This document shows, one piece after another, positions 3,101 through 35,205 of a stretch of DNA of 35,205 nt (the first letter of the stretch is position 1; every line of letters begins with the position of its first letter). The stretch is from a virus (lineage: Duplodnaviria > Heunggongvirae > Uroviricota > Caudoviricetes): the IMG/VR virus record IMGVR_UViG_2588253749_000005; one strand, 5' to 3'. The notes beneath the pieces were generated by a model. The model was given only the letters and a program-made list of their open reading frames with translations. It was not told the origin of the DNA and made no database searches. A program made the translations under genes and the position numbers.

Positions 3101-3579
3101 TATCCCGCCCCCGTCATACCCGTGAATTTAGTCGCCATACTGCCAGCCTTACCGATGAGCGATTCCGCCTGTTTACCGATATCGCCATAAAGCGCGGCCA
3201 GTGATTCATCAACGCGGGTGAGCGACAGCGTAAAATCAATTTTCCGGGGTGTGCCGTCTGCAAAGAAAATACTCCCTGTTTCACTCACCTTGCTGATGAC
3301 ATACATGCCGTAAATCATGCCGGTACCATTCAGCAACGGCCACGCCCGGCCTTCATCTGCCATCAGTCTGAGCGTGGTCATCGTCAGCTTGCCGCCGGTC
3401 AGTTCGGGATAAAGCACGCCTGCAAGCGTAATGTTTTCCTCACCCACACCGAGAAACTGAAAGGCATCCCGTTTACCGATACAGGAATTTGACGGCCAGC
3501 GATAATCTGATTCACGCTGCATGGTCTGGTGTGGCAGCGTCTGGCGCATAAAAACAAACATACCTAACGCGAGCATCAT
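3100..3579 (-). CDS. U: Tail protein U
   Basis: 159 aa, ATG at 3579 preceded by GGAGGTGA RBS; recognised as P2 gpU; overlaps the D start. Confidence 0.9.
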   Translation of the reverse strand: MMLALGMFVFMRQTLPHQTMQRESDYRWPSNSCIGKRDAFQFLGVGEENITLAGVLYPELTGGKLTMTTLRLMADEGRAWPLLNGTGMIYGMYVISKVSETGSIFFADGTPRKIDFTLSLTRVDESLAALYGDIGKQAESLIGKAGSMATKFTGMTGAG

Positions 3580-3593
3580 TTTTCGTCACCTCC

Positions 3594-6041
3594 TTAACCG
3601 TCATGCATCATGCTGGCACGGGTGCGCGCACGTTTATCCCGCTCGTATTTTTCGAGCGCATCCTGTAACTGGCGGTCGAGCTGTGTCCCCTGCGCAGTAC
3701 CGCCCGTCAGGTTGATGTGATATTCGTTTTTACTCTGGTCCACATAAGAGCGGCCAGCCGGTGCCGTAACTGGCTGATAAGCCTGATAGCCAGCATAAGA
3801 GCTGGTCGCCGGAATATAACCACCGGTGCCATACGTGGCGGCATGAGTTCTGGCGGCAGTCTGGTCAAGCGTGCCTGACTCTTTGTTGATGACGCCGAGT
3901 TTTTCCAGTACCCAGTCAATACCGCCGCGCAGTTTGTTGAACGCATTAAGCGGCAGCATCAGCGCGTCAGCCAGTGCCTGCCCGAACATGACGCCCGTGT
4001 CACGGCAACGGTTCAGGGTGTCCTGGGTGGCTTTGACCGGGGCAATCAAGTTTTTAAACCACTGCCACGCGGCCTGTAACTTTTCGCCCAGCCAGTCAAA
4101 CACCGGCTTAAGTGGCGTGAACAGTTCCCCCACCGGCGCAAATGCCGCTTTCAGCCCTTCCACCACACCGCCAAAGAATGCGCTGACAGGCTCCCAGTAT
4201 TTACGGATAAGCAACGCCCCGGCGACAATGGCGGCCACCACGGCCACAACCGGCCAGCTAATCGCCCCGATGGCCGTCATAACAGCACTGCCAACCGTCG
4301 TGAAGACTGCCCCCATTGCGCCTGCTGCCGCGATGATGGCATTGATGCCAGTGATAACCGGCCAGGCTACAAGACCAATTGCACCGATGATGCCAGTAAG
4401 CGCCAGCGCGCCACCGGCAATGATGCCAATGGTTGACGCCAGTGATTTGTTTTTCTGGATCCAGCCGTCGAGTTTTAACACATACTTTGTGGCCGTCTGT
4501 GTGAGCTTACGCAGTGCGCCTTCCTGCTGGTCAAACAGGTCTGTCCCCACCGCCTCATAAGCGGACTGAAACTCCTTAAAGTCACCGCCGAGGTTGTCCT
4601 GCATGATATTTACCAGCTCGGCAGTCTTCCCGTCTGAGGCTTTAAACGCAGCGGTCAGTTTGTCCAGCTTTCCGGTTGAGGCGGCAGTCATCAGCACGGC
4701 GGCGGCTGAGCTGGCCTCCTCCCCGAAAATAGTTTTCATGTATTCAGCCTGCTGGGCAGTACCGAGCCGGTTTTTCTCAAAACTGGCCTGCATTTCTTTC
4801 AGAATGGTAAATACTGGCCGGGTGTTTCCCTTGCTGTCTGAGGTTTTCACGCCAAGCTCTTTGAGTGCATCCCATGCTTTTCCCGTTGGTGCCTGCAGGC
4901 GACTTAACACGGCACGGCTTCCCGTCCCCGCCATTGAGCCTGTAATTTTTGCATCATGCAGCGCCCCGACCATTGCGGCGGTTTCTTCAATGCTGACACC
5001 GGCATTTTTTGCCACAGGTGCGGCATAGGTCAGCGCATCGCTCATGCCGTCAAAATCGGCGGCGGTTTTGTTCATCGTCATGGAGAGAACATCCCCGATA
5101 TGAGCGACCTTATCGTTTGAAAGCTGAAAGGCGGATTTCATCCCCATCAGCAGGGCGGCGTTTTCTTCCATCGTGCGGCGGTTCGCCAGCGCCATGTTCA
5201 GCGTGACCGGCGTTGCCGCCTGAATGGCATCAACATCCCCACCGGCTTTCGCAATAATAATCTGCGCACCGGCTGCATCATCTGCCGAGGCGGCGGTATT
5301 GTCGCCGAGCTGGCGCGCCTGTTTGCGTAATGCGGCCATTTCGGCGGAGTCTTTTGCCACACCGAGCACAGCCTGCAATTCTGAGTTTTTCTGCGCAAAC
5401 TCATAACCGGGCATCAGCAGCTTAACACCGGCCATCGTTCCCGCAGCAGCAATCCCCACACCGGCAGCGCCCACTGAGGCCATATTTCCTGCCAGTTCCT
5501 TTCCGGCCTGATAACGCTGTTTTACTGCGTTAAGTTTTGCCTGTTGTGCACTGACACGCGCCAGTGCGTCGCGCTGACGGTTAAGCTGTGCGGTGGTTTC
5601 ACTGATACGGTTTTTCAGCCCCTGCTCATCATGTGCAAGATTGCGGGTATTAATTCCCACAGCGGCCAGTTCCCGCTGCTGGCGCTTAACGGAATCCGTC
5701 AGGCGGTTATATTTCGCCTGTAAGTCCTCCGCCGCACGCTTTGCGGATTCCAGCACTTTCGCCTGAGCACGGGTCGGACGTTCGGTGTTTTTAAACTGTG
5801 TGGCAAGGGCTTCGGCTTCCTGCCGAGCCTTTTCAAGTGCATGACCAGTCACGGCGAGCTGCGCACTGGTCTTGCGAAATCCCTCAATACGGGACGCCTG
5901 ACCGTTCAGCTCGCGCAGTGATTTTTGTGTTTCCCGGATATCCCCCGACAGCGACTTGCTCGCTGTACGGATGGATTTAAACGGGCGGGATGCCTGGTCA
6001 ACAGCCCTGAGCAATACCTGTAATTTTACATTGTTACTCAT
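3594..6041 (-). CDS. T: Tail tape measure protein T
   Basis: 815 aa, ATG at 6041; coiled-coil N-terminal half and Gly/Ala-rich hydrophobic central segment; P2 gpT position. Confidence 0.9.
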   Translation of the reverse strand: MSNNVKLQVLLRAVDQASRPFKSIRTASKSLSGDIRETQKSLRELNGQASRIEGFRKTSAQLAVTGHALEKARQEAEALATQFKNTERPTRAQAKVLESAKRAAEDLQAKYNRLTDSVKRQQRELAAVGINTRNLAHDEQGLKNRISETTAQLNRQRDALARVSAQQAKLNAVKQRYQAGKELAGNMASVGAAGVGIAAAGTMAGVKLLMPGYEFAQKNSELQAVLGVAKDSAEMAALRKQARQLGDNTAASADDAAGAQIIIAKAGGDVDAIQAATPVTLNMALANRRTMEENAALLMGMKSAFQLSNDKVAHIGDVLSMTMNKTAADFDGMSDALTYAAPVAKNAGVSIEETAAMVGALHDAKITGSMAGTGSRAVLSRLQAPTGKAWDALKELGVKTSDSKGNTRPVFTILKEMQASFEKNRLGTAQQAEYMKTIFGEEASSAAAVLMTAASTGKLDKLTAAFKASDGKTAELVNIMQDNLGGDFKEFQSAYEAVGTDLFDQQEGALRKLTQTATKYVLKLDGWIQKNKSLASTIGIIAGGALALTGIIGAIGLVAWPVITGINAIIAAAGAMGAVFTTVGSAVMTAIGAISWPVVAVVAAIVAGALLIRKYWEPVSAFFGGVVEGLKAAFAPVGELFTPLKPVFDWLGEKLQAAWQWFKNLIAPVKATQDTLNRCRDTGVMFGQALADALMLPLNAFNKLRGGIDWVLEKLGVINKESGTLDQTAARTHAATYGTGGYIPATSSYAGYQAYQPVTAPAGRSYVDQSKNEYHINLTGGTAQGTQLDRQLQDALEKYERDKRARTRASMMHDG

Positions 6042-6461
6042 TCGTGTTTCCGCTTCGCCGGAGCGCCTTTTCGCGCCATGTGATGAGTTCGGTCAGGCTC
6101 ATGGGATACAGTTCTGATGGCGGCCAGTGAAATATCACAGCCACATCTGCCATCAGGTCATCGACCGAGAGATTTTTCGGAAACGTCACTGCACCGAGTT
6201 CGGCGACAAAAAACCGACCACCTTACCGGCCAGCGCCACAAGGTCAGGCAGTTCCAGCGCGGCGACTTCCTGCTCGGTCAGCATCGGTGCCGTCATGCGC
6301 GGCAGCACCTTAATCAGTGCATCGACTTCAGAGTTCGCGACCGCAGCCAGACTGACACCGCGCAGCGTCCCGGCATTGGGTTTCATCAGCGTGACCTGTT
6401 CGATAACCTGCTCACCACGCTTGACCGGATTGTCCAGGGTAATCACATTTTCTTTGTTCAT
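6034..6461 (-). CDS. E+E' tail chaperone fusion made by programmed -1 ribosomal frameshift
   Basis: Zero-frame heptamer T TTT TTG on the minus strand (plus coordinates 6207..6213); the -1 frame continues open for 57 codons (VAELGAVTFPKNLSVDDLMADVAVIFHWPP...) to a TAA at 6034..6036, 2 nt before the T start; total about 142 aa as for P2 E+E'. Confidence 0.8.
6186..6461 (-). CDS. E: Tail assembly chaperone E
   Basis: 91 aa, ATG at 6461; recognised as P2 gpE; slippery TTTTTTG near its 3' end. Confidence 0.88.
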   Translation of the reverse strand: MNKENVITLDNPVKRGEQVIEQVTLMKPNAGTLRGVSLAAVANSEVDALIKVLPRMTAPMLTEQEVAALELPDLVALAGKVVGFLSPNSVQ

Positions 6462-7048: not shown

Positions 7049-8239
7049 TTAATTGCTGTTAACCGAGGTGACCAGATTTGCCAGGTATTTATCGGTAATA
7101 CGCTGGCGCAGGGTCAGGTTTTCGAGAGGAGGCACCGGTGTATAGTCGTAGTCGATATACAGTTTTCCGGCCTTGAGGGTTTCCGCATCGTTGGATTCTT
7201 CGCTGAACCAGCAGGTCGCATCCACGATATAGCCGTTTGTTTTCAGCTCACGGAATTTGGCATTGATGCCGTCAACGATGTCGCGAATCAGCGTTGCAGT
7301 GATGGGCTTGTCCACCGCCCACATGTGCGCCTCAGCCATCGTGTCGGCCAGCACCTGCGCGGTGCGGGTGTAGTTTTCAAAGAGGAACAGCGGGTCATCA
7401 GAGCAGGTACGGTTACCCCAGAAGCGGAAACCGTCACGGCGAATCAGCGTTGTGACACCTGACTCGTTCAACAGGTCAGCATCGGTGCCGGACTCCTGCA
7501 AATCCCAGAATACAGAGGCACTGATGCCGGTAACACCGTTTACCCCGACGTTGGACAGCGTTTTATGCCAGCCCTGCTCCTGGTCGATTTTGGCACGCAG
7601 ACCCAGCGCACGGGCGGTGGCATACGCGGTGGCGGTGGTACTGGCGACCGTATCCCATGCGAGGAAATCCGGCCAGATGACCATCAGCTCTCGCTGGCTG
7701 AAATTCTGGCGGTAGGCTTTCACCTCGGAAATGGTTTTACAGCCCCATGCGCTGATATACCCGAAAGCGCGCAGCTTCTGACAGACGGATGCCAGTGCAA
7801 CAGCCACCTCTTTGGTGTCCAGTCCCGGCACGCCGAGAATACGCGGTTTAACACCGGTTACCGACTCTGCCGCCAGCAGGGCTTTCAGTCCGGTATACTG
7901 ACCGTTTTCGTCAGTGGTGCCGATGATATTGGAAACGGTCTGCGCGAGTTTCGTTTCCTCGTCGTCGCCGGTGCCGTCTTCCACGCGCACAACAACAGTC
8001 ACTGGTTTTGACTGGTCGGCGATGGCCTGCAACGATGCCGCCAGCGTGCCTTTTTTACCGGCCTTTGCAATTGCGGTCTGCACATTGGTAATCAGCACAG
8101 GTTTATTGAGGGGGAAGGTTTCCGCATCCGCATCGCTGGCCGTGCAGACCATGCCGACAATGGCCGTGGATACAGTGGAAATGACGCGGGTGCCCTCGTT
8201 AATCTCCAGCACCTGCACGCCGTGATGATAGTCACTCAT
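7049..8239 (-). CDS. FI: Tail sheath protein FI
   Basis: 396 aa, ATG at 8239; recognised as P2 gpFI. Confidence 0.92.
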   Translation of the reverse strand: MSDYHHGVQVLEINEGTRVISTVSTAIVGMVCTASDADAETFPLNKPVLITNVQTAIAKAGKKGTLAASLQAIADQSKPVTVVVRVEDGTGDDEETKLAQTVSNIIGTTDENGQYTGLKALLAAESVTGVKPRILGVPGLDTKEVAVALASVCQKLRAFGYISAWGCKTISEVKAYRQNFSQRELMVIWPDFLAWDTVASTTATAYATARALGLRAKIDQEQGWHKTLSNVGVNGVTGISASVFWDLQESGTDADLLNESGVTTLIRRDGFRFWGNRTCSDDPLFLFENYTRTAQVLADTMAEAHMWAVDKPITATLIRDIVDGINAKFRELKTNGYIVDATCWFSEESNDAETLKAGKLYIDYDYTPVPPLENLTLRQRITDKYLANLVTSVNSN

Positions 8240-8337
8240 CCGTTTAACTCCGTGGTTAATGGGTGCAATTATTTTCTGTTGTGCAGAGCATGAGACGCTA
8301 TTTGACCTGGCTGGTCAGTGGATGAAACAACAGATAA

Positions 8338-8358
8338 AGAAAAGGCGGACAATCCGCC
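8338..8358 (-). terminator. Intrinsic terminator at the 3' side of the FI-G cargo island
   Basis: Minus strand reads GGCGG-attgt-CCGCC followed by TTTTTT; lies between the cargo gene ending at 8725 and the FI upstream region. Confidence 0.5.
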
Positions 8359-8724
8359 CGCCTGTCATGATTTGTACTCACTTATTTCCCGACTGACAAT
8401 TTACATAGCCAAAACGCTATCAAATCTGACAGTCTGCTTTGAGCGATCTGCGGACATTACTAACAGCATTCTGTATGAATAACGGGGGGTAGATCATTCC
8501 TGTCCTCACGACGACGCCTATCTATCATACAGTCGTTCTTTGGATCAAGACGCGTTCTGAAATGGTGTTTTTATGTATGTGCTGAATTCTGGGGCATAGA
8601 GTAAACCTTTCAAATTGCCAGAAACAGAAATGTGCGATTTAGTTGTCAAGTAATACCGGATATTTCAGCGATTCATCAAGAAATCATCGACCAGGCTGCT
8701 GTACATTCTCATCGGACGATTTTA

Positions 8725-9591
8725 CTATTCCTCAAGATCGCAGTTACTGCAATGACCTTCCATCCGGAATGCACCACATTCACAAGGCTCCATAGGAACA
8801 AAACCATCCATCTTGCTGTATTCACATTTATACCAGAGACAGACACCGGCCCTTTGTTCCGGTAAATAAATTACGGATGGGACACTACATTCAGGACATT
8901 CCTGAAAATCCCAAGTTTGCAGATTATTCAGGCTGAAACCACAACAGATACAGTGAGTCCGTGCCGGAAAGCTTTCACCTTGGTAAAGGATAAAATGTGA
9001 AAAACTCTCACAAACGGGACAAAGTGCAAGGGTGTATTCCTGGTTAACAGTTATATCAAGGAATTGTTGCTCAAGAGCGATGATGTCTTGACGTAAATCA
9101 GAGTTCCATGAATTTTCGGTCTCATCTGACTGAATTATGACGAATGCGGGACGAAAAATTTGTTGGTACAGTTCACTCAGTTGCATTGACAGTTCTTGCG
9201 GACGAACCTCAAGGGCAAAATGCTGAAGGTTATTACGCAACTGACCCACCGTTTTCATCATTTGTAATGCAGATTCAGAAAATTCGGCTGGGTAATATGT
9301 CTTTAACAGCTTACAAAGCTGGCTGACGTTGACAGATTTACACTGGTGTAATTCTGACTCGGTTGGATGCGCCGGATCCACACATTTTTCTTGAAGCGAT
9401 GCTGGATTAAAAATCGCTCCAGACCCATTGCGCGAAACTACGGCCTTCAATAATAGCTCAGCGGCCTGAAAGAGGTTAAGCAGGCACTGTTTGTAGTCAC
9501 GTCGATCATGCCCTTCTAGCGCTTTGTTAAAGTAGTCCAGCCCGGTTTTCACTGAATCCAACGCATTTTCTAGTAAGTTAAAACGGACCAT
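8725..9591 (-). CDS. Uncharacterised cargo protein: helical N-terminal domain with HEPN-like R-x4-H motif (RNNLQH) plus Cys-rich zinc-ribbon-like C-terminus
   Basis: Track ORF 8725..9666 starts at GTG; preferred start is the ATG at 9591 preceded by a G-rich RBS (about 288 aa); alternative ATG at 9615; C-terminal 100 aa has CPVC, CICC, CPEC, C-x4-C, CEC and CSNC motifs; AT-rich relative to phage genes. Confidence 0.6.
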   Translation of the reverse strand: MVRFNLLENALDSVKTGLDYFNKALEGHDRRDYKQCLLNLFQAAELLLKAVVSRNGSGAIFNPASLQEKCVDPAHPTESELHQCKSVNVSQLCKLLKTYYPAEFSESALQMMKTVGQLRNNLQHFALEVRPQELSMQLSELYQQIFRPAFVIIQSDETENSWNSDLRQDIIALEQQFLDITVNQEYTLALCPVCESFSHFILYQGESFPARTHCICCGFSLNNLQTWDFQECPECSVPSVIYLPEQRAGVCLWYKCEYSKMDGFVPMEPCECGAFRMEGHCSNCDLEE

Positions 9592-9756
9592 ATTAAAGCC
9601 CCCCCGAATAGGCATCGTCGTTATGCCAGCGCTTCCGCCAGTTACACAAATAGTGATTGTACCCACGAATATTGGGAACCTATTTTAGCATGTTTAACTT
9701 TAGTAGTACTGACACAACATTCATGGAGCGGACTGATTGACTTTTGGGGGCGCGTA

Positions 9757-9785
9757 TTTACAAACTCACTACAATGCTGTATAAT
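9757..9785 (+). promoter_or_regulatory. Candidate sigma70 promoter (TTTACA-17 nt-TATAAT) facing the small hydrophobic ORF
   Basis: -35 tttaca at 9757..9762, 17-nt spacer, -10 tataat at 9780..9785; plus strand, opposite to the flanking cargo genes. Confidence 0.45.
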
Positions 9786-9923
9786 TCGTGAAGAGTGAAT
9801 TTAGCTAGTGCATCCATAGGTTCAATTCCTATGACTACAATTCTCATCACAGCTCTCCCAATAGTCGCATTTATCCGTTACCTCAACGTGTTACTTAACA
9901 ATTACGTCAGTAAGGAGAAGCCT

Positions 9924-10106
9924 ATGAGTAAATTATTCTGCCATGAAGTACTATATGTATCTTGTTTCATTGAAACTTTTTGGGCTGGGGTGATAAGTGT
10001 AGTAGCGGGTCTGATGACGGGCGGTGTCCAAATTATTTTGGCACTAGCTAAATCTTCTCAATTTTTGTTTTTTTTCAAAGCACTTACACCCATAAATATT
10101 ATTTAA
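9924..10106 (+). CDS. Small hydrophobic protein (60 aa, predicted membrane-spanning)
   Basis: ATG at 9924 preceded by AAGGAG with a 6-nt spacer; hydrophobic core FWAGVISVVAGLMTGGVQIILALA; same frame is open from 9795 with an alternative ATG at 9831 (91 aa) lacking an RBS. Confidence 0.45.
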   Translation: MSKLFCHEVLYVSCFIETFWAGVISVVAGLMTGGVQIILALAKSSQFLFFFKALTPINII

Positions 10107-10371
10107 ATCAATAAAATAAGTCACTCTACGCATATTTTCCTTATCATGGTCTTTCGTGTTTTTGTACTCAACATGATCGTTTCCCCTTTCTTTAATACAC
10201 AGTGTGATTAGCTACGTCTTCTATTGGAGCGAAGTGGACGGGTTAATTGAGCTGAATGTCAGCTATGAGCGAGGAACGGACTTCAAGAAAGTACCTAACT
10301 GCGTATCGATTGCAAAATATGACAGTCTGACGGTGTTAAGGGCCGTGAGTGCAGCCCTTAAGAAAAAAGTA

Positions 10372-11307
10372 TTAATAATATATCCTGGCTTGCTCGCTCG
10401 TTTCGGTTAAGTTTATTTCATGGTAGTGATTATTTATAAAGTCACAAAAAGTACTAATTTTATCTTTGAGATTACTCATGCTATGCGTGATTTCGTCGTA
10501 TAAATCGCTTTCCTCCTGATTTCGACAGTGGTCACCGGGATTTATAAAACTATAAGTATCATTTGGTGCTGAATAATTATATGGAGCTTTTCTAAACAAG
10601 ATAATTAGATCACGCCAAGCCGTTGCAAAATCAATTGTAACATTCTTTAAAGCTGTATCATTCAGTTGAAAAACAGGTGAGTTTAAAATGTTCAAAATAT
10701 TATCGTATTCTTCAATAATTAATGAATGAATGTATTTTGCGCCCCACTGCAAATGGTCTATTGTTGAATAAAAATCAATATAATTCAACAATCTCGACAA
10801 ATTTGAGATATCTCTCTTGCGCAAAAATTCTTCCCTCGTCGGTTGGTGTCGTTCGAACATTTGCGGGTAGTACATTTTGAGTACAGCTGGGTCTTTGCTT
10901 AAATCAAAGCTAATATCCTCCCAGAAAACCACATCGACAGGAAACAGGCCTTTTAATTGTCTGGCATCATTGAGTGTTCTTACATAGCGCTGAATGCTAA
11001 CATCCCTGGGCGCTGTCGTAGCGATGTAAAGAACCGTAATTTTTGGGCGAAATTTTTCAGCCTTGAGTAATTCATCATCGATTGTCGCCGTACTGATTCC
11101 TGATACTGTATTTTTACACTGAATTCCAACGAAACGCCCAAGAGAGTCATCACCATATACATCAACTCCATCCTGCCGCTGCCCTGACCGTCCATGTCTG
11201 TTCAGATTAGGATTGGACCATCGCAGTTGGAATGAACTTTTGCACATATCCTCAAATTCGTCCCAAGATTTAGGGGGGGGTAACAACATTGAATTATATG
11301 TAACCAC
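10372..11307 (-). CDS. Uncharacterised cargo protein with N-terminal Mrr-type restriction-endonuclease-like (PD-(D/E)xK fold) domain
   Basis: 311-aa ORF; GTG at 11307 with AAAGGA 7 nt upstream, alternative ATG at 11289; N-terminal WDEFEDMC...GRSGQRQDGVDVYG...GRFVGIQCK matches the Mrr-catalytic-domain pattern (D-x-D ... Q-x-K); C-terminal 170 aa unrecognised; strongly AT-rich. Confidence 0.6.
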   Translation of the reverse strand: MVTYNSMLLPPPKSWDEFEDMCKSSFQLRWSNPNLNRHGRSGQRQDGVDVYGDDSLGRFVGIQCKNTVSGISTATIDDELLKAEKFRPKITVLYIATTAPRDVSIQRYVRTLNDARQLKGLFPVDVVFWEDISFDLSKDPAVLKMYYPQMFERHQPTREEFLRKRDISNLSRLLNYIDFYSTIDHLQWGAKYIHSLIIEEYDNILNILNSPVFQLNDTALKNVTIDFATAWRDLIILFRKAPYNYSAPNDTYSFINPGDHCRNQEESDLYDEITHSMSNLKDKISTFCDFINNHYHEINLTETSEQARIYY

Positions 11308-11769
11308 TTACTAATCCTTTATCTAAGATTCTTCATTTTCGTAATCACTATCATAATCATGCTTGATGTGCAATATCTTATTTGCCATGGTTATATGACG
11401 TGAACATAATATATACTGTAAGTATAAGCAGAATTTATTAATGGTGTTCGCCACTCAACGTAATGGTTTCACACTCTAAGGTTCTTTTTTAATAAATCAA
11501 AACATTATGGACAGTGAATCATATCGGAAATGGTTCCTTTTAAATTGAATAACGGCCCATAGTACACAGGTGTATGTGTTAATCGATTTTTCAGACGTTT
11601 TTTTTCGCCTAACATGAGATTTCGTTCGATTGAGCACCAGACCCAATTACCACTATTTAATGATTTAGGTCGAGTAGTAGTAACGTCAGCTCTTGGCACA
11701 TAGCGGACTGTCAGATTAGGCTTTACTCTGTGCTATAGATATGTAAGCTCACACCAGAGATCATACAAC

Positions 11770-12297
11770 TTATTGCGGCATTTCCGGCCATTCGGGATTT
11801 GCAGGATCCACACGACTGACCAGAACGCTGTAGCGTTCCCATGCTTCCAGTCGGCTGCGTTCCTCATCCGTCGCCATATTCAGCCTGACAGCGCGTTCCA
11901 GCGGCAAAATCACGGATTCAGCTTCGGAAAGTAAAGCTGCCTTTTGTGATTCGGCCTGTTGTTGCTGTTCGTCTGCCGTATAAATCCGCTTAATCACGGC
12001 ACCATCCTTAAACATCCATTTACCTGAGTCATCAGCACGTCGGTTGGAGGTAATATCAGGAACCTCGACAACGCTGAAACCTTCAGGGTTAAGCGTTGAA
12101 GCATCTCTGGTGATGCCGACAATTATATTATTCTCGTCGTAAACAATCTTTATCGTGTCTTCCTGAAAATTACTTACTTCCTCATACCAGTTTTTTCCCT
12201 CTTCGGACCATAACCAGATAACATCAAAATTTTTTGTCAGTTGATATTGGGCAACAGTTTTTGGATTACCCGCAGTAATATTTTTTAAATGCTGCAT
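11770..12297 (-). CDS. G: Tail fiber assembly chaperone G
   Basis: 175 aa, ATG at 12297; recognised as P2 gpG-type; directly downstream of H. Confidence 0.85.
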
Positions 12298-23907: not shown

Positions 23908-24080
23908 TGTCAGGAGTCCTGAATAGTGATTAGAGGAGTCACATGTCGGCATCAGTTTCCCGACGATGCGCATCCTCCGCCATCAGTCCCGGATGGCTTA
24001 TCACTGACACAACAGCACCTTAGCGAATCGCGGGGCGCGACTCAGTAGCCTTGCCGTGTATTCATCACGGCGAGGTATTC
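23908..24080. promoter_or_regulatory. Divergent late-promoter region between O and P
   Basis: 173-bp intergenic region between divergent late genes O (minus) and P (plus), where P2 has its Ogr-dependent divergent late promoters; called by position, no perfect TGT-N12-ACA dyad found. Confidence 0.45.
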
Positions 24081-25853
24081 ATGACCATCACCACAGACAC
24101 CACTCTTTTACACGACCCGCGTCGTCAGGCGGCGCTGCTGTACTGGCAGGGATTTTCCGTGCCGCAGATTGCCGCCATGTTGCAGATGAAACGCCCGACG
24201 GTGCAGAGCTGGAAACAGCGCGACGGCTGGGACAGCGTTGCCCCCATCAGCCGTGTCGAAATGAGTCTGGAAGCGCGGCTGACCCAGCTCATCATCAAAC
24301 CGCAGAAAACCGGCGGTGATTTCAAGGAAATTGACCTGCTGGGACGCCAGATTGAACGACTGGCACGGGTAAACCGCTACAGCCAGACCGGCAACGAGGC
24401 AGACCTTAATCCGAACGTCGCTAACCGCAACAAAGGCGGGCGGCGCAAACCGAAAAAGAATTTTTTCAGTGACGAGGCCATCGAAAAGCTGGAGCAGATT
24501 TTCTTTGAGCAGTCTTTCGATTATCAGTTGCACTGGTATCGCGCCGGGCTTGAGCACCGCATCCGCGATATCCTGAAATCCCGCCAGATTGGCGCGACGT
24601 TTTATTTTTCCCGCGAGGCGCTGCTGCGCGCCCTGAAAACCGGTCATAACCAGATTTTTCTGTCGGCCAGTAAAACGCAGGCGTATGTGTTCCGTGAATA
24701 CATCATCGCCTTTGCCCGTCTGGTTGATGTTGACCTGACCGGTGACCCGATTGTCCTGGGCAATAACGGCGCAAAACTGATTTTTCTCGGCACCAACTCC
24801 AACACCGCGCAGAGCCATAACGGCGACCTGTACGTCGACGAGATTTTCTGGATCCCGAATTTTCAGGTGCTGCGTAAGGTGGCATCAGGTATGGCCTCAC
24901 AGAGTCACCTGCGATCGACCTATTTCTCCACCCCGTCCACGCTGGCGCACGACGCCTACCCGTTCTGGTCGGGTGAACTGTTCAACTGGGGACGCGCCAG
25001 CGCCGCCGAACGCGTGGAAATCGACGTCAGTCATAACGCCCTTGCCGGTGGGCTTCTCTGTGCGGACGGCCAGTGGCGGCAGATTGTCACCATTGAGGAC
25101 GCCCTGAAAGGCGGCTGCACGCTGTTCGACATTGAGCAGCTCAAACGCGAAAACAGCGCCGACGATTTTAAAAACCTGTTCATGTGTGAATTTGTTGACG
25201 ACAAGGCGTCGGTGTTCCCGTTCGAGGAGCTGCAACGCTGTATGGTCGACACGCTGGAAGAATGGGAAGACTATGCGCCGTTTGCCGCCAATCCGTTCGG
25301 CTCCCGCCCGGTATGGATTGGTTACGACCCGTCACACCGTGGCGACAGCGCCGGATGCGTGGTGCTGGCACCGCCGGTGGTGGCCGGTGGCAAATTCAGA
25401 ATACTTGAGCGTCACCAGTGGAAAGGCATGGACTTTGCCACCCAGGCTGAATCCATCCGCAAACTCACCGAAAAATACAACGTCGAATACATCGGTATTG
25501 ATGCCACCGGCCTCGGTGTCGGCGTGTTCCAGCTCGTGCGCTCGTTCTATCCCGCCGCGCGCGACATCCGCTACACGCCGGAAATGAAAACCGCAATGGT
25601 GCTCAAGGCAAAAGACGTCATCCGCCGTGGCTGTCTGGAATATGACGTCAGCGCCACCGACATCACCAGCTCGTTTATGGCTATCCGCAAGACCATGACC
25701 AGCAGCGGACGCAGCGCCACCTATGAGGCCAGCCGCAGCGAGGAAGCCAGCCACGCCGACCTCGCCTGGGCGACCATGCACGCCCTGTTAAATGAGCCAC
25801 TCACCGCCGGTATCAGCACCCCGCTGACATCCACCATTCTGGAGTTTTACTGA
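24081..25853 (+). CDS. P: Terminase large (ATPase) subunit P
   Basis: 590 aa from the ATG at 24081 with GAGG RBS (MTITTDTTLLHDPRRQAALLYWQG...); P2 gpP. Confidence 0.92.
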   Translation: MTITTDTTLLHDPRRQAALLYWQGFSVPQIAAMLQMKRPTVQSWKQRDGWDSVAPISRVEMSLEARLTQLIIKPQKTGGDFKEIDLLGRQIERLARVNRYSQTGNEADLNPNVANRNKGGRRKPKKNFFSDEAIEKLEQIFFEQSFDYQLHWYRAGLEHRIRDILKSRQIGATFYFSREALLRALKTGHNQIFLSASKTQAYVFREYIIAFARLVDVDLTGDPIVLGNNGAKLIFLGTNSNTAQSHNGDLYVDEIFWIPNFQVLRKVASGMASQSHLRSTYFSTPSTLAHDAYPFWSGELFNWGRASAAERVEIDVSHNALAGGLLCADGQWRQIVTIEDALKGGCTLFDIEQLKRENSADDFKNLFMCEFVDDKASVFPFEELQRCMVDTLEEWEDYAPFAANPFGSRPVWIGYDPSHRGDSAGCVVLAPPVVAGGKFRILERHQWKGMDFATQAESIRKLTEKYNVEYIGIDATGLGVGVFQLVRSFYPAARDIRYTPEMKTAMVLKAKDVIRRGCLEYDVSATDITSSFMAIRKTMTSSGRSATYEASRSEEASHADLAWATMHALLNEPLTAGISTPLTSTILEFY

Positions 25854-26887
25854 TGAGCAAGAAAAAAGGGAAAACACCGCAACCTGCGGCAAAAAAAATG
25901 ACCGCCAGCGCCCCGAAAATGGAGGCATTCACCTTTGGTGAGCCGGTGCCGGTACTCGACCGCCGTGACATTCTGGATTACGTCGAGTGCATCAGTAACG
26001 GCAGATGGTATGAGCCGCCGGTCAGCTTTACCGGTCTGGCGAAAAGCCTGCGTGCTGCCGTGCATCACAGCTCGCCGATTTACGTCAAACGCAATATTCT
26101 GGCCTCGACATTTATCCCGCATCCGTGGCTTTCGCAACAGGATTTCAGCCGCTTTGTGCTGGATTTTCTGGTGTTCGGTAATGCGTTTCTGGAAAAGCGT
26201 TACAGCACCACCGGTAAGGTCATCAGACTGGAAACCTCACCGGCAAAATATACCCGCCGTGGCGTGGAAGAGGATGTTTACTGGTGGGTGCCGTCCTTCA
26301 ACGAGCCGACAGCCTTCGCGCCCGGCTCCGTGTTTCACCTGCTGGAGCCGGATATTAATCAGGAGCTGTACGGCCTGCCGGAATATCTCAGCGCCCTTAA
26401 CTCTGCCTGGCTGAATGAGTCGGCCACGTTGTTCCGCCGCAAGTATTACGAAAATGGCGCACATGCCGGATACATCATGTACGTCACCGATGCCGTGCAG
26501 GATCGCAACGATATCGAAATGCTTCGCGAAAACATGGTCAAGTCGAAAGGCCGCAACAACTTTAAAAACCTGTTTCTCTATGCCCCACAGGGGAAAGCCG
26601 ACGGCATTAAAATTATCCCCCTCAGTGAAGTGGCGACGAAGGACGATTTTTTTAATATCAAAAAAGCCAGCGCCGCTGACCTGCTGGACGCGCACCGCAT
26701 CCCCTTTCAGTTGATGGGTGGCAAGCCGGAGAACGTCGGGTCGCTGGGTGATATTGAGAAAGTGGCAAAGGTCTTTGTCCGCAATGAGCTTATCCCGTTA
26801 CAGGACAGGATCCGCGAGATAAACGGCTGGCTCGGTCAGGAGGTCATCCGCTTTAAAAACTACTCACTGGACACTGACAACGACTGA
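25853..26887 (+). CDS. Q: Portal protein Q
   Basis: 344 aa, ATG at 25853 overlapping the P stop; P2 gpQ. Confidence 0.92.
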   Translation: MSKKKGKTPQPAAKKMTASAPKMEAFTFGEPVPVLDRRDILDYVECISNGRWYEPPVSFTGLAKSLRAAVHHSSPIYVKRNILASTFIPHPWLSQQDFSRFVLDFLVFGNAFLEKRYSTTGKVIRLETSPAKYTRRGVEEDVYWWVPSFNEPTAFAPGSVFHLLEPDINQELYGLPEYLSALNSAWLNESATLFRRKYYENGAHAGYIMYVTDAVQDRNDIEMLRENMVKSKGRNNFKNLFLYAPQGKADGIKIIPLSEVATKDDFFNIKKASAADLLDAHRIPFQLMGGKPENVGSLGDIEKVAKVFVRNELIPLQDRIREINGWLGQEVIRFKNYSLDTDND

Positions 26888-26892
26888 ACATC

Positions 26893-26914
26893 GCCGCCTG
26901 CGGGCGGCTTTTTT
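26893..26914 (+). terminator. Intrinsic terminator after Q
   Basis: GCCGCC-tgcg-GGCGGC followed by TTTTTT, 6 nt after the Q stop. Confidence 0.8.
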
Positions 26915-27056
26915 ACACCCCGTCATCCCCCCCCTCACACGCTCACCACCGCACAAAACACCCCGCAGACACACAACGCCTCAACGGGCAGACTAAGTGC
27001 CGTCACGACGCGCTGAGACGCTGAAAAAATACAATCAGCACCACCGTCAGCGCGCA

Positions 27057-27075
27057 GTGCTTTCCCCGCCTCGCC
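27057..27075 (-). other. cos cohesive-end site (19 nt)
   Basis: gtgctttccccgcctcgcc is the reverse complement of the P2 cohesive end GGCGAGGCGGGGAAAGCAC as I recall it; located next to Q as expected. Confidence 0.7.
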
Positions 27076-27281
27076 CGCCCGCTTCATGGGGCGGTTTTAA
27101 TGCAGTTGCATGACCACTCAACTAGCGCGCCAGTCCTGATGTCGCCAGGCAGTTATTGTTCTCTGACTTGCGTGCGCTTCGATGCAGAGTAATGCACTTC
27201 CTGAATTGCTCGCATTCGCATCGTTATCATGATAGAAAACAGGTAGTTATTTGTGCGCAACTTAAGAAGAAATCACTAATT

Positions 27282-28670
27282 ATGAAAAAGATTTATGAAT
27301 TAACTACTGGTAGAGCGCTTAAGTATTTTCTGCAGCATGATTCATACACTACTCTGGAGCTACCCAGTTATGTCGATTTTTCTTCCTTGCTTGAAGAAAT
27401 CAACTCCGCGATAGATGAAGGTAAAATCAACTTCCAACCTGACTCCAAGTCATTGATGGGGAAGAATATAAATTACGAGGTTTTAGTCAGCAAAGATGGC
27501 TTATATAGCTGGCGACGAATAACACTAATTAATCCTCTGTACTACGTGTATTTTTGTAAACTTATTACATCCTCTTCCAACTGGAATGCTATAAGGAATA
27601 AATTTAGAGAGTTTGAGTCTAATGATCTTTTTTTATGCTCAAGTATCCCAGTGAGCAAAAAGAACACCTCAAACGTAGCTGCATCTGTTTTAAACTGGTG
27701 GGAAGATTTTGAACAAAAAAGTCTTTCATTGGCTCTTGAGTATGAGTTCATGTTCAGCACAGATATTTCAAACTTCTACCCTTCTATTTACACTCATAGC
27801 TTTGAATGGGTATTCATCTCAAAAGAAGAGGCCAAAAAGAAAGAAAATAACAATAACCCAGGACGATTGATTGACACTCATATCCAGATGATGATGAGTA
27901 ATCAGACAAACGGAATACCATTGGGTAGTACGTTGATGGATACATTTGCCGAATTAATTTTAGGCGAAATTGATTTACAGCTAAGAAAAAAAACCGAAGA
28001 GCAAAAAATAACGGATTACAAAGTAGTTCGCTACAGAGATGATTATCGAATATTTTCAAGCAGTAAAGATGATTTGGACAAAATCTCAAAGTGTTTGGTT
28101 GAGGTCTTAGGTGAGTTTGGGCTTGATTTAAACTCAAGAAAAACAGAACTACATGACGACATCATTCTTCACTCCCTTAAATCAGCAAAAAAAGAATATA
28201 TTATAGAAGGGTCGTTCAACTCCCTACAGAAAATGTTGTATGCAATATATTTATTTTCTTTAAAACATCAAAACTCCAAAATTACAGTCAGATATTTAAA
28301 TGATTTCTTGCGGAAATTATTTAGGAAGAAAAAGATCACAAATAGTGGGCATCAACTAGATGCAATGCTTGGAATTATTTCAAGCATCATGGCTAAAAAC
28401 CCAACCACCTACCCAGTGGGAATGGCTATTTTCGCAAAACTCTTGACCTTCCTTTATGACGACGATGAACTCAAATTTGGCAAGTTACAACAACTTCATT
28501 GTAAACTAGGTAAACAACCAAATACTGAAATGTTAGATATTTGGTTTCAACGAGTTCAAGGGAAGATACACACACAATGGGAAGGCGATTACAAAACAGC
28601 CCTATGTCAACGCATAAATGATGAACTCAAGGAAAAAAAACATTTACCATTGATGGCCTGTGGGATGTAG
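27282..28670 (+). CDS. Reverse transcriptase, Abi-P2-like defence-associated type, in the tin/old slot
   Basis: 462 aa from the ATG at 27282; RT motifs STDISNFYPSIY, NGIPLGSTLMD and VVRYRDDYRIF (YxDD); very AT-rich; sits between cos and A where P2 carries tin/old; the track ORF starts 42 codons upstream at a non-ATG codon. Confidence 0.8.
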   Translation: MKKIYELTTGRALKYFLQHDSYTTLELPSYVDFSSLLEEINSAIDEGKINFQPDSKSLMGKNINYEVLVSKDGLYSWRRITLINPLYYVYFCKLITSSSNWNAIRNKFREFESNDLFLCSSIPVSKKNTSNVAASVLNWWEDFEQKSLSLALEYEFMFSTDISNFYPSIYTHSFEWVFISKEEAKKKENNNNPGRLIDTHIQMMMSNQTNGIPLGSTLMDTFAELILGEIDLQLRKKTEEQKITDYKVVRYRDDYRIFSSSKDDLDKISKCLVEVLGEFGLDLNSRKTELHDDIILHSLKSAKKEYIIEGSFNSLQKMLYAIYLFSLKHQNSKITVRYLNDFLRKLFRKKKITNSGHQLDAMLGIISSIMAKNPTTYPVGMAIFAKLLTFLYDDDELKFGKLQQLHCKLGKQPNTEMLDIWFQRVQGKIHTQWEGDYKTALCQRINDELKEKKHLPLMACGM

Positions 28671-28925
28671 AGTGGATTCCGGGTTCAGCCAAAAATAAAA
28701 ACAAACAGAAAATACTATCAATTTTGAAAAAAACAAAAATTGTGGATTTAGATGCATTCGAAGAAATGGATACTGATATTACACCAGAAGAAGTGAACTT
28801 ATTCGACAAGGAACACAGCGCTTAACGAAACAATGTTATTAACTCAACATGACTTCGTTAAGCATTAAAGCGAACAGTCATATGAAATTTCGACATCCCT
28901 AACGCCTCGCAAGCTCGTTGTTCAA

Positions 28926-28970
28926 CCCCGCCAGCACTGAAAGCGAGTTTCAGCGTCGGCGGGATTTTCT
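28926..28970 (+). terminator. Candidate compound-hairpin terminator downstream of the reverse transcriptase
   Basis: CCCCGCC ... GGCGGG outer stem around an inner CTGAAA-gcgag-TTTCAG stem, followed by ATTTTCT. Confidence 0.4.
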
Positions 28971-28990
28971 ATGGTCAACGTGGTGACAGA

Positions 28991-29251
28991 TTATGGGCAC
29001 GCGTGAAGGTAGAAATATGGACGGTTGGGATTATTTATTTCTCCCATACGGCTGCAGTTATCACTGACGATCTCAGTCCCTCCGACCAACTCGTAGAGGG
29101 TCAGATTCTCTTTGACCATAATTTGTAAACAATAGCCATCAGCCGGAGACTCTTGCACGAGTACAATGGCGGAACCGGACGCATAGCTAGTAATGTATGC
29201 ATTAGTCATAATGACATGCTTCCAAAGCAAGATTGCCACGCAGTTCCGCAT
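28991..29251 (-). CDS. Hypothetical protein at the P2 orf91 position, immediately downstream of A
   Basis: 86-aa ORF with ATG at 29251 (alternative ATG at 29209); weak RBS; called mainly by position. Confidence 0.4.
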   Translation of the reverse strand: MRNCVAILLWKHVIMTNAYITSYASGSAIVLVQESPADGYCLQIMVKENLTLYELVGGTEIVSDNCSRMGEINNPNRPYFYLHACP

Positions 29252-29312
29252 GATCCATCAGTTGCTGATACCAACCATCAAGTGGAAGCAAAATCAACCA
29301 TTTCAATCATTT

Positions 29313-31589
29313 TTATATGTTTGTTGAGAATCCCGGCCACTCATCAGCAGCCAGATACGTGAATTGTTTCCCGTCATAATTTACGGTTGCCCCACGCGCC
29401 AGCGCCTCAAGCTCCCATCGCTGGGGCAAGATTCCATTCTGAGCAAGGTCAACGCGGATACGGGTGATTTGCAATCGTTCCGACCGGCTCAGTCTGGCCG
29501 ATGGTGCAATTTCATGTGGTTTTAACGTGCTTCCGTTTCTTTGCTGACGGTTTGGCGTTCTCAGCCCGTGTTTTAATGCGCCCCTGAGCGCCTTCACGAC
29601 CTCCGGCTCATTCCATTCGATAATACCGTCATCAACCAGATTAAGCACTGCTGCGGCGTGCTCAGAAGGTGTGGGAGCCGGTAACGAAGTATCACCACCG
29701 GTGAGCTTTCCACAGTTATTGACAGGACTCCGAGGCGCGGCGATGCCGCTTTTTAAATTCAAAGGCTCAACGACCGGAACTTTCGGCACAATGCGCCAGT
29801 CCGTGGTTCTGGTGATATGAATATGACGCGCGCCGAGATGCGGTGCGTAAATGCCGACCACTCTCTCGACCTCTTCCTCGTACTCGTTAACTTCATCCGA
29901 CGGGCTACGGGCGACCCTGACAGTCTGACAATCGCGCGGAACATTTGCCCCACCCTGCGCGCTGATATACAACGCAAAATCACCACTGTCTGCGGCGGCG
30001 CGTGCAGCCTCGACGCGCTCGTCAAACTCATCAGCAATGCTGACGCCACGAGGCAATTTGCGTAATTCACGGTAAGCCCCCATTGTCGGCAGACCAACCG
30101 TTTTAAATTGCGGAATGCGCCACGTTGACGCCCATGCGGTAACAGCCGCGGCTGTGTCTTTCAGCGGCCTGCCGGTGTCGTTATCGAGCTGACCATCCAG
30201 TGCATAGCCGTCGATGTTTTTTGAGATGTATTTCGCGATATATCCCGCAGCACCGCCCCGGTTAAGGTGTTTTGCCTGAAAACGGTTTCGCGCGGCTCCT
30301 CTTTCGTCGCCATCCTCTTTGAGCGCATAGCGACGCATGATTTCGATAATCTGGTTACGCTGGCGTGGATTACAAAAAAGCATCATATGCCAGTGCGGCG
30401 TTCCGTCGTGGTGTGGCTCGACGACACGCAAACCGTAGACCTGTAAATCATTATCCTTGAATGCCGTGCGCATCAGGCTCCAGATGCGGCAGAGATAACG
30501 CTGCGCATCCTTTGGATTAAATGCCTCATCGTTCCAGCCGTGATTAAGCTGAACGGTTTTACTTTCGCCTTTTCTGACCTGACGTGTCGGGTGATACTTT
30601 GACGGCGCGGTCAGCGTGATAAACATCCCCACATCACCCTCTGCGGCGGCGTAACGCTCAATACCGGCAATGGTGTTCATCAGCTCCATCCGGCGAATTT
30701 CAGGATTAGAAATACTGCCCATCACCTTACTGATAAGGTCGATACGCTCGCCGGTTTCCCTGTTTTCAAGGTCACACGATTTAAGAAATTCCAGATTTGC
30801 CTGGCGGCGCGCACGCACATCACGAATGGCGTGTTTACTGGCATAAGGAGAACGGTCTTTATTGACCTCCCCGACAGCTATCAGTAACGCTTCATGCCAG
30901 CGCATACGCTGGCCTTTAAGCTGATGAGTCCACCACTCATCGTTAAACAGACGGGCAATGGCAGAATATGCCTGCCTCGTGGTCATCTGCCCTTTACGGT
31001 ATTTTTTCCAGTAGAGAGGGGAAATATTGAAAGCACGTGCAGCGCCAGCAACATGACCATACAGGTGAGCCTGCGCCTCATCCGTAAACAGTGATTCTTT
31101 TTCGCCATGCGCATCCACCCAGGCATCGCAGAGTTCCTCATACATCATGAAAAGCTGCGATGAGATACGGGCGGCAAACTTTTTCAGCTCCTTGTCATTC
31201 ATTCCTGGCAGGCGCGCATAGTGGTCACGCTCTGCCAGAAACAGCAACGACGCGTCGGTGTTCATTTCATGGCGCTGATTCACACGCTCAATACGCGGCC
31301 ATAAACGACGCTGAAAAGTGGATGTGAGGAAATAAAACCCGTGTACCGGACTTTTATTGCGCCGGATGTAGTCATAGCGTGAAGTAAACAGCGAGCGCAA
31401 AAAGTAAGGCAGGCGGTTAATCGTGGATAAAACACCTTGCACCTGACGCATCTCGTCACGTGTAAGAGGTCTTTCTCGCCCGACGGCCTCGCGTGGCGCG
31501 TTCCATGCATAAGCACCGGTAAACGTCTCACCGGTGCCTGCGGCAAATGCTGACGGAGGGACAAAACGCCCGGAGGTTTTAACGGCCAT
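29313..31589 (-). CDS. A: Replication initiation protein A (rolling-circle nickase)
   Basis: 758 aa from the ATG at 31589 (MAVKTSGRFVPPSAFAAGTGETF...); P2 gpA; the track ORF has a 14-codon upstream extension. Confidence 0.92.
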   Translation of the reverse strand: MAVKTSGRFVPPSAFAAGTGETFTGAYAWNAPREAVGRERPLTRDEMRQVQGVLSTINRLPYFLRSLFTSRYDYIRRNKSPVHGFYFLTSTFQRRLWPRIERVNQRHEMNTDASLLFLAERDHYARLPGMNDKELKKFAARISSQLFMMYEELCDAWVDAHGEKESLFTDEAQAHLYGHVAGAARAFNISPLYWKKYRKGQMTTRQAYSAIARLFNDEWWTHQLKGQRMRWHEALLIAVGEVNKDRSPYASKHAIRDVRARRQANLEFLKSCDLENRETGERIDLISKVMGSISNPEIRRMELMNTIAGIERYAAAEGDVGMFITLTAPSKYHPTRQVRKGESKTVQLNHGWNDEAFNPKDAQRYLCRIWSLMRTAFKDNDLQVYGLRVVEPHHDGTPHWHMMLFCNPRQRNQIIEIMRRYALKEDGDERGAARNRFQAKHLNRGGAAGYIAKYISKNIDGYALDGQLDNDTGRPLKDTAAAVTAWASTWRIPQFKTVGLPTMGAYRELRKLPRGVSIADEFDERVEAARAAADSGDFALYISAQGGANVPRDCQTVRVARSPSDEVNEYEEEVERVVGIYAPHLGARHIHITRTTDWRIVPKVPVVEPLNLKSGIAAPRSPVNNCGKLTGGDTSLPAPTPSEHAAAVLNLVDDGIIEWNEPEVVKALRGALKHGLRTPNRQQRNGSTLKPHEIAPSARLSRSERLQITRIRVDLAQNGILPQRWELEALARGATVNYDGKQFTYLAADEWPGFSTNI

Positions 31590-31854
31590 ATGAGCCAAAA
31601 GCCTCTGAACAACGCTTGCTGAGTTGCTCAACCTGCGCGTTTAAATCAGCAAAAGACTTTGCGCTTCCGGTCAGAATATCGTGATGCATCAGGCCGGAAA
31701 CGAGCTGGCTTAATTTCGGGTAATAACCAACCACCGACAGCCATTCCTGACCGGCGTTTTTACCGCTTTCCGCTCTCTTTTTCTCGTGGAGAATAAACTG
31801 AAAGCTGTCACTGGTAACGACATAACGTTCGCCAATTTCGATACGAATACTCAT
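31579..31854 (-). CDS. Hypothetical protein, P2 orf83 position
   Basis: 91 aa, ATG at 31854; overlaps the A start; conserved position in the B-A early operon. Confidence 0.7.
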   Translation of the reverse strand: MSIRIEIGERYVVTSDSFQFILHEKKRAESGKNAGQEWLSVVGYYPKLSQLVSGLMHHDILTGSAKSFADLNAQVEQLSKRCSEAFGSYGR

Positions 31855-34209: not shown

Positions 34210-35205
34210 ATGTCTATTAAAAAGCTCGATGATGGTCGTTATGAAGTGGACGTCAGACCGCAGGGTGCAGATGGAAAACGTATCAGGCGGAAATTTAAAA
34301 CTAAAGGTGAAGCTCAAGCATTCGAACGTCATGTCCTGGTTAACTACCACAACAAAGAGTGGTTGGAGAAGCCGGCCGACCGCCGAACTCTTACAGAGTT
34401 GTTAGGCAGATGGTGGATATATCACGGAAAATCACATGAGCGTGGAGATATTGAACGAGGGCGTTTGACGACAATAATCGCCAAATTTGCCGAGATGGGA
34501 GTGTCCAGGGCGGACCAGCTAACAAAGAAAACGATAACTGATTATCGCGTTGTAATGATGAACGATGGCCTAAAACCAGCCAGCGTAAATCGGCATCTGG
34601 CAATAATGAGCGGGATGTTCACCAAGTTAATTGACGCCGGTGAATATCACTCTCACAACCCGTTCCGTGAGGTTAAGCGGTTACGTGAAGCTGTTACGGA
34701 AATGGCTTTTTTGTCCAGTGAAGAGATTACGCGGCTGTTATCCATGCTTGATGGTGATGAGTTAAATGCAACTCTGGTCTGCCTTTCTACTGGTGGACGC
34801 TGGAGTGAAGTGTCTAATTTGAAAGCTGAACACATCATTAACCAGATGGTTACGTTTATGAAAACTAAAAACGGAAAGCGCAGGACAATTCCCGTTTCGC
34901 AGGACCTGATTAAACGGATCAAGACCAAAAATTCAGGCAGGCTTTTTAATGCCAGTTACTACAAAGTGCGCAACGCTCTCAGGGAAGTAAAACCCGATTT
35001 ACCTGACGGACAGGCAGTGCATGTTTTGAGGCATACATTTGCCACACATTTTATAATGAATGGAGGTAACATAATCACATTGCAGCGCATCCTGGGTCAT
35101 TCTAACATTCAGCAAACTATGACCTACGCACACTTTGCACCGGATTTCTTACAAGATGCTGTGACTCTTAACCCGGTGTCAGGAATGTCCATAATGCGTC
35201 CATAA
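34210..35205 (+). CDS. int: Tyrosine integrase
   Basis: 331 aa, ATG at 34210, stop TAA at 35203..35205; R...HxLRH...Y catalytic pattern (VLRHTFATH, MTYAHF); P2 Int-like. Confidence 0.9.
   Translation: MSIKKLDDGRYEVDVRPQGADGKRIRRKFKTKGEAQAFERHVLVNYHNKEWLEKPADRRTLTELLGRWWIYHGKSHERGDIERGRLTTIIAKFAEMGVSRADQLTKKTITDYRVVMMNDGLKPASVNRHLAIMSGMFTKLIDAGEYHSHNPFREVKRLREAVTEMAFLSSEEITRLLSMLDGDELNATLVCLSTGGRWSEVSNLKAEHIINQMVTFMKTKNGKRRTIPVSQDLIKRIKTKNSGRLFNASYYKVRNALREVKPDLPDGQAVHVLRHTFATHFIMNGGNIITLQRILGHSNIQQTMTYAHFAPDFLQDAVTLNPVSGMSIMRP

Follow-up and report, generated by a model that had tools for sequence, protein, structure and literature searches.

A one-nucleotide deletion in a poly(A) run truncates the Abi-P2 reverse transcriptase gene of a P2-like prophage

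The 35,205-nucleotide (nt) stretch of DNA analyzed here (IMG/VR virus record IMGVR_UViG_2588253749_000005; hereafter, the window) is a P2-like prophage that carries a reverse transcriptase (RT) gene with an unusual 3' end: a run of eight adenines (A8) is followed by an early stop codon in the frame of the RT, and a second frame runs on, open, well past it. Does the RT gene end at this stop codon, or is the open frame a part of the same gene that has been split off and, if so, has this happened by error, by mutation, or by design? The sequence identifies the gene as an abortive-infection RT of the Abi-P2 family, of the same type as orf544 of P2-EC58. Loss of a single nucleotide from a run of nine adenines (A9) ends the native Abi-P2 sequence at residue 453 and takes away a folded, conserved segment of 61 residues. 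In our assessment, with a probability of roughly 0.8, the A8 run represents a genuine heritable frameshift allele of abi-P2 that arose by a slippage deletion, encodes a truncated and probably inactive protein, and is not programmed.

The frameshift site

The features that define the site are as follows.

27282..28670, + strand: truncated Abi-P2 (P2-EC58-type) RT open reading frame (ORF), supported by the ORF itself, 7R08, PADLOC AbiP2, and RefSeq WP_248697044.1
28633..28640, + strand: A8 homopolymer, site of the 1-nt deletion, from the comparison of alleles (G2A9, G3A8, G2A8, and G3A7)
28640..28825, + strand: out-of-frame remnant of the native C terminus (residues 454 to 514) with its TAA stop codon, from the 7R08 alignment, conservation in homologs, an AlphaFold2 model, and the crystal structure

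The initial annotation, which was made from the sequence alone, had located the A8 run at 28633-28640 on the strand of the RT (+), and this location holds. The RT ORF starts with the ATG at 27282, enters the run with the codons CTC AAG GAA AAA AAA, and ends as GAA AAA AAA CAT TTA CCA TTG ATG GCC TGT GGG ATG TAG, with the stop codon at 28668-28670, as had been noted previously. Its 462-amino-acid (aa) product consists of 453 native and 9 aberrant residues (HLPLMACGM). The -1 frame is indeed open from 28625, where it follows TGA TGA, to the TAA at 28823-28825, and past the A run it encodes 61 aa (TFTIDGLWDVEWIPG...KEHSA). Insertion of one A joins the two parts into a protein of exactly 514 aa, matching the earlier estimate of about 514 aa.

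The surroundings of the site are rich in A (37%, with 35% G+C), and from this local composition stop codons would be expected at 0.075 per codon, which gives a probability of approximately 0.005 to 0.008 that the tail would stay open; only 0.5% of the shuffled tails do so. Given these figures and the abundance of stop codons in the two off-frames of the RT body (32 and 46), the openness of the tail exceeds what chance would produce. The initial annotation also stated that the tail frame had no internal start codon. That statement is imprecise, since TTG (28724), GTG (28742), ATG (28766), and GTG (28793) are all present; what stands is that the tail has no start of its own, because every one of these codons lies 3' of the conserved W-x3-W motif. 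A separately translated tail ORF was rejected on the same grounds. When searched alone against Pfam, the tail has no match.

Identity of the gene as an Abi-P2 reverse transcriptase

With the missing A restored, the protein aligns in a single tblastn piece with P2-EC58 orf544 (99% identity over all 514 residues) and, likewise in one piece, with P2-EC30 orf570 (74.7% identity over 514 aa). Its residues 1 to 508 match residues 32 to 540 of the crystallized Abi-P2 chain (PDB 7R08) with an E value of 1.8e-256. Among defense models, PADLOC AbiP2 is the top hit for the RT as it stands in the window (506 bits; E = 2e-152), and the next one is Drt6 (159 bits); the truncated RT covers only positions 4 to 439 of the 489 in the AbiP2 profile. 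The catalytic YRDD motif (Y251-R252-D253-D254) and Tyr30 are invariant in an alignment of 38 family members, and both are retained in the truncated ORF. Native Tyr30 corresponds to the priming residue, Tyr61 of the tagged construct, with an offset of 31 residues. The complete C-terminal helical lobe, extending up to the W-x3-W ... EV-LF end, is missing from the protein encoded in the window, where the remnant is out of frame.

Abi-P2 enzymes are trimeric, protein-primed, template-independent DNA polymerases, and the P2-EC30 member, the only one for which both this mode of synthesis and an effect on T5 are on record, has been reported to exclude phage T5 (PMC9508834). The RT of the window shares with the P2-EC58 and P2-EC30 enzymes the YRDD motif, the priming tyrosine, and the slot between portal/cos and gene A but, unlike them, is frameshifted past residue 453 and so lacks the 61 residues with which the helical lobe ends. 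It is thus a defective allele of an already known system in its known genomic niche. In RefSeq, its coding sequence in TW10573 is represented by WP_248697044.1, a short "RNA-directed DNA polymerase."

The open frame encodes the native C terminus

The tail is the normal, folded, family-conserved C terminus of Abi-P2. Comparison with homologs bears out the earlier proposal that the tail belongs to the RT and was split off by a 1-nt change in the length of the A run: the tail is normally in frame in relatives down to 33% identity, and the homologs do not end at the annotated stop. At least 58 of 64 near-identical complete Escherichia coli records have the tail in frame, and 58 of the 60 such records listed have one more nucleotide at the run. 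HKUOPY1, for example, encodes an in-frame protein of 514 aa, and over 1851 nt its sequence shows no substitutions relative to the window, one extra A being the sole difference. The tail is also in frame in the P2-EC58 and P2-EC30 copies. EC30-type genes have 72% nucleotide identity, 515 codons, and the same EVNLF-KEHS ending; between the EC58 and EC30 types, the tail is 61% identical and the body is 76% identical. More distant homologs in the databases, from Yersinia, Vibrio, Aeromonas, Mergibacter, and uncultured phyla, are approximately 492 to 530 aa long and, down to 33% identity, cover 98 to 100% of the 514-aa query. In the family alignment, the tail residues W461, W465, and E504 are invariant, whereas I500 and F508 are near-invariant.

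The tail aligns with residues ~485 to 540 of the 7R08 chain. In the crystal, residues 32 to 541 are ordered save for four loops, none of which lies within the tail (PMC9508834). The AlphaFold2 model has a mean predicted local distance difference test (pLDDT) score of 90.2, with values of 75 to 93 in the tail, which is modeled as four short helices following the helix at residues 440 to 450. A terminator-like element lies further downstream.

28927..28963, + strand: GC-rich hairpin followed by AUUUUCU, terminator-like (-22.6 kcal/mol; z = -4.3)

This hairpin is located ~100 nt 3' of the stop codon of the full-length gene. RNA folding revealed nothing comparable after the premature stop codon, where positions 28671 to 28730 are unstructured.

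Origin of the A8 allele

The initial annotation offered three explanations for the A8 run, namely, a sequencing or assembly indel, a slipped-strand inactivating or phase-variable mutation, and programmed transcriptional or ribosomal slippage. Of these options, a slipped-strand inactivating mutation is the best supported, as the homologs have the tail in frame and the A8 allele recurs across sequencing projects.

If the run were a homopolymer indel of sequencing or assembly, the DNA itself would have A9 and an intact gene. Homopolymer length errors are indeed frequent in long-read assemblies, and the frameshifts seen in single genomes (S56, DCE7, and EC12) could partly be such errors. However, the exact 462-aa product is found under several accessions in the protein collection and is encoded on 13 contigs of separate projects, which include the drafts GCA_000167815.1 and GCA_001637785.1, seven Logan assemblies of public runs, which are short-read assemblies, and the complete genome of TW10573. 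The A8 run is present in all nine loci retrieved for this product (9/9) and in TW10573, each of which matches the window at 100% identity over 1851 nt. Over a longer segment of 7389 nt (window positions 24282 to 31670), TW10573 differs from the window by one substitution, in the terminase region, so that the window may derive from a sister strain within that lineage. Because independent assemblies share the same allele, A8 is not a one-off error, and because the other long ORFs of the prophage are intact, there is no indication of a systematic homopolymer error. Even the truncated products of EC12 and DCE7 recur, on 12 and 2 contigs, respectively. For the allele of the window, sequencing error was rejected on this evidence as a most improbable explanation.

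The option of programmed slippage, in which the A8 run would be a functional design that yields two isoforms at a set ratio by -1 ribosomal frameshifting or by transcriptional slippage, found no support and appears just as improbable as sequencing error. What makes it worth considering is that the 0 frame reads GA-A AAA AAA and so offers a correctly phased A_AAA_AAA slippery heptamer, that the next -1 codon, ACA, opens the native tail, so that the -1 product would be, residue for residue, the protein encoded by A9, and that A8 and A9 runs serve in this way in some insertion sequence (IS) elements and in Thermus dnaX (PMC1088944). Against it, the out-of-frame layout belongs to a rare minority, all distant homologs examined being in frame, and the run is not conserved at the nucleotide level in relatives. 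It was absent from all five homologous loci that were fetched from other genera: in Salmonella, Proteus, Serratia, and Klebsiella, the lysine patch is spelled AAG AAA AAG A(A/G)A ACA, and in the EC30 type it reads ACA AAA GAG AAA ACA. These different spellings make the A9 run a feature of the E. coli EC58-type lineage among Abi-P2 RTs. There is also no stimulatory RNA structure 3' of the run, as none of three folded windows was better than its shuffled versions (z = +0.33 to +0.73), and the closest stretch rich in purines, AAGGA, lies directly against the run, whereas in dnaX the spacing is ~10 nt upstream (PMC1851650). The expected efficiency of unstimulated frameshifting is only ~0.1 to 0.5%. 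In published measurements, E. coli RNA polymerase shows 0.39% insertion slippage at A7, with reporter rescue detectable only from A8, and barely so at that length (PMC6260861), and A_AAA_AAA devoid of stimulators gives >0.10% -1 frameshifting, no more than ~10-fold over a background of 0.055% (PMC4066793), and these rates therefore predict only a small leak. Close parallels are frameshifted genes that slippage at poly(A) runs partly rescues, namely, Citrobacter rodentium tssM (PMC4256274) and human apoB with its A8 run (as cited in PMC1088944): as at the RT, a 1-nt indel in an A run splits an ORF and leaves its downstream part intact, and one A inserted into the mRNA would restore the native protein. 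At the RT, rescue is a prediction from published rates, and a small one. We regard the A run as something that an AT-rich, lysine-rich gene produces incidentally and not as a recoding signal shaped by evolution.

Recurrence of frameshifts in poly(A) runs

Four tract alleles have been found at the site, two of them in frame (GG-A9 and GGG-A8) and two frameshifted (GG-A8, as in the window, and GGG-A7, in DCE7 and EC12). GGG-A7 is an independent frameshift at the same position, and GGG-A8 is carried by one E. coli variant in which the run has been shortened by an A-to-G change. Two further runs in the gene are intact in the window and broken elsewhere.

27986..27993, + strand: second A8 run in the RT gene, with frameshift alleles in other E. 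coli
28187..28193, + strand: A7 run in the RT gene, with a -1 allele elsewhere

At the run at 27986-27993, other E. coli carry both -1 alleles (242-aa product, in two codon backgrounds) and +1 alleles (238 aa) (P0033, P0035, P0036, P0037, and P0038), and S56 has A7 with a split coding sequence. The -1 allele at 28187, in another complete genome, yields a 307-aa product that ends in ...SAKKNIL (P0014). Altogether, of the 64 EC58-type copies found in complete E. coli records, at least 4 are broken at a poly(A) run, and at least 3 of 64 records are frameshifted at the run at 28633. It is thus at its homopolymers that the gene is vulnerable. The A8 allele is much less common than its exact A9 parent (13 contigs versus 236 index blocks).

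Copies of A8 occur in at least four prophage backgrounds, whose flanks differ by 29 to 100 substitutions. In two of these backgrounds, which are ~80 substitutions apart, there are A8/A9 twins that show no substitutions over ~7.4 kb (L006 with A8 and L027 with A9; L007 with A8 and L035 with A9). Either slippage has recurred or P2 prophages have passed the cassette to one another; the two are inseparable because the segment from cos to gene A contains no other variable site.

Such twins suggest a further explanation, a phase-variable contingency switch in which reversible poly(A) slippage would toggle a costly Abi gene ON and OFF and selection would maintain the runs. In line with this explanation, tracts of ON and OFF length occur in backgrounds that do not differ in any other respect, an independent G3A7 allele exists at the same site, the other A8 run has been both shortened (-1) and lengthened (+1), and there is an excess of long runs (two of A8 or longer, against 0.33 expected; shuffle P ~0.04). 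However, the run at 28633 is missing in the homologs from other genera and in the EC30 type, the type that was shown to exclude T5, and it has been shortened by the A-to-G change in the G3A8 variant. Runs of 8 to 9 nt are also short for classical contingency loci, and the OFF alleles are a small minority, both among the complete records and in the count of contigs against index blocks. Furthermore, with an invariant cassette between cos and gene A, exchange could spread a single A8 allele with no need for recurrent mutation; rapid swapping has been reported (PMC13586616). Thus, the gene resembles phase-variable contingency loci in having ON and OFF lengths in near-identical backgrounds and several slippery runs per gene but differs from them in that the tract is short and restricted to one lineage and OFF alleles are rare. 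We consider a contingency switch unlikely, although better placed than either sequencing error or programmed slippage. Slightly less likely again is its combination with a low, slippage-derived dose of the full-length protein from the A8 OFF allele, which would make Abi-P2 a defense RT of tunable dose. Were switching found to be reversible and under selection, a connection between contingency loci and abortive-infection systems would follow, but the data at hand can be explained without it.

Consequences of the truncation

Under the preferred reading, a heritable slippage deletion, replication slippage would have removed one A from A9 and thereby converted GAA AAA AAA ACA into GAA AAA AAA CA. 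Translation would then depart from the native frame after residue 453, add the nine aberrant residues, and terminate. In the resulting protein, the fingers/palm core of the RT and the priming tyrosine are predicted to remain, together with the greater part of the helical domain, but the last 61 residues would be missing. The helical lobe contributes trimer contacts and holds the nascent DNA, oligomerization of AbiK is required for synthesis (PMC9508834), and removal of 46 C-terminal residues from AbiK abolishes its antiphage activity (Figiel 2022; PMC9508834). By analogy with these observations, the truncation probably abolishes or strongly lowers both protein-primed, template-independent DNA synthesis and abortive-infection function. 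The A8 allele probably still gives rise to a little full-length protein, with the same sequence as the A9 product, through insertion by RNA polymerase and unstimulated -1 frameshifting on A_AAA_AAA, with a combined leak that may amount to ~1% or less and at most to a few percent.

Several observations weigh against this interpretation. The loss of function is deduced by analogy, and the analogy with AbiK is imperfect, since the helical domain of AbiK and that of Abi-P2 are not similar in sequence. The A8 cassette shows no further decay, having accumulated no substitutions relative to its A9 twin, which fits a recent event but would fit retained function or reversible switching as well. Finally, A8 alleles persist in several prophage backgrounds and so have not been rapidly purged.

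In terms of annotation, the 462-aa protein WP_248697044.1 should be viewed as a frameshifted Abi-P2 rather than a short isoform. Defense callers based on hidden Markov models still match the truncated allele as AbiP2, although it is probably defective. The locus provides a concrete case of a recurrently pseudogenized defense gene in a P2 hotspot, which is mildly noteworthy, as pseudogenes of this kind have recently been reported to be rare (PMC13586616).

The prophage and its cos-proximal hotspot

The gene map of the window includes the following features.

1-1362, + strand: U32-peptidase host gene, at the left end
24051-25853: terminase
25853-26887: portal (gpQ)
27057..27075, - strand: 19-nt sequence that we take to be P2 cos (exact match, 0 expected by chance)
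28991-29251, - strand: small ORF encoding 86 aa (72 aa according to other gene calls), the counterpart of ORF85 of P2-EC58, between the RT and gene A
29313-31631, - strand: replication gene A
34210-35205, + strand: phage integrase, cut by the end of the window, at the right end

The tail and head genes come after the U32-peptidase gene. With that gene on the left and the integrase on the right, the window comprises nearly the whole prophage, from the left host junction to int. The RT is flanked by the portal gene and cos on one side and by gene A on the other, so its cassette occupies the cos-proximal hotspot that lies between gpQ and gpA. This variable locus has been described previously, and P2 itself bears old and tin there (Rousset 2022; PMC9122126).

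In prophages that carry an identical RT cassette, substitutions cease abruptly at ~27047, just left of cos, so the boundary of the cassette coincides with cos; in the L008 background, they resume inside gene A (from ~29300). The small ORF at 28991-29251, which has no match in Pfam or PADLOC, travels with EC58-type cassettes; EC30-type loci lack it, and in them gene A begins ~100 nt past the RT. Some loci are further elaborated. HKUOPY1 (L002, 1712-2713, - strand) and GCA_900490215.1 (L028, 1530-2531, - strand) have an extra gene for a 333-aa hypothetical protein between the portal gene and the RT, and in DCE7 (L004, 1-686, - strand, and 3298-4278, - strand), the frameshifted Abi-P2 is preceded by a second "reverse transcriptase family protein" and followed by an IS5 insertion.

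Other loci in the window

A different kind of slippery site is found among the tail genes.

6186-6461, - strand: 91-aa ORF with a TTTTTTG heptamer at 6207-6213, near its 3' end
6034-6189, - strand: overlapping downstream ORF in another frame

We take this pair to be the P2 tail-chaperone genes gpE and gpE+E', in which case its -1 frameshift, unlike that at the RT site, would be truly programmed. In both cases, a homopolymeric slippery site joins two overlapping frames of one phage gene; however, the out-of-frame layout of E/E' is reportedly the standard one in P2, whereas at the RT it is the exception.

A second variable locus, at the position of Z/fun in P2, spans approximately 8240 to 11770, between the tail sheath gene (7049-8239) and the gene at 11770-12297. 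It contains two ORFs of similar length, the one further along the window being without a match in PADLOC or Pfam and the other matching a candidate defense family.

10372-11307, - strand: ORF of ~312 aa
8725-9666, - strand: ORF of ~312 aa, with a match to the candidate defense family PDC-S64 (E = 3e-21)

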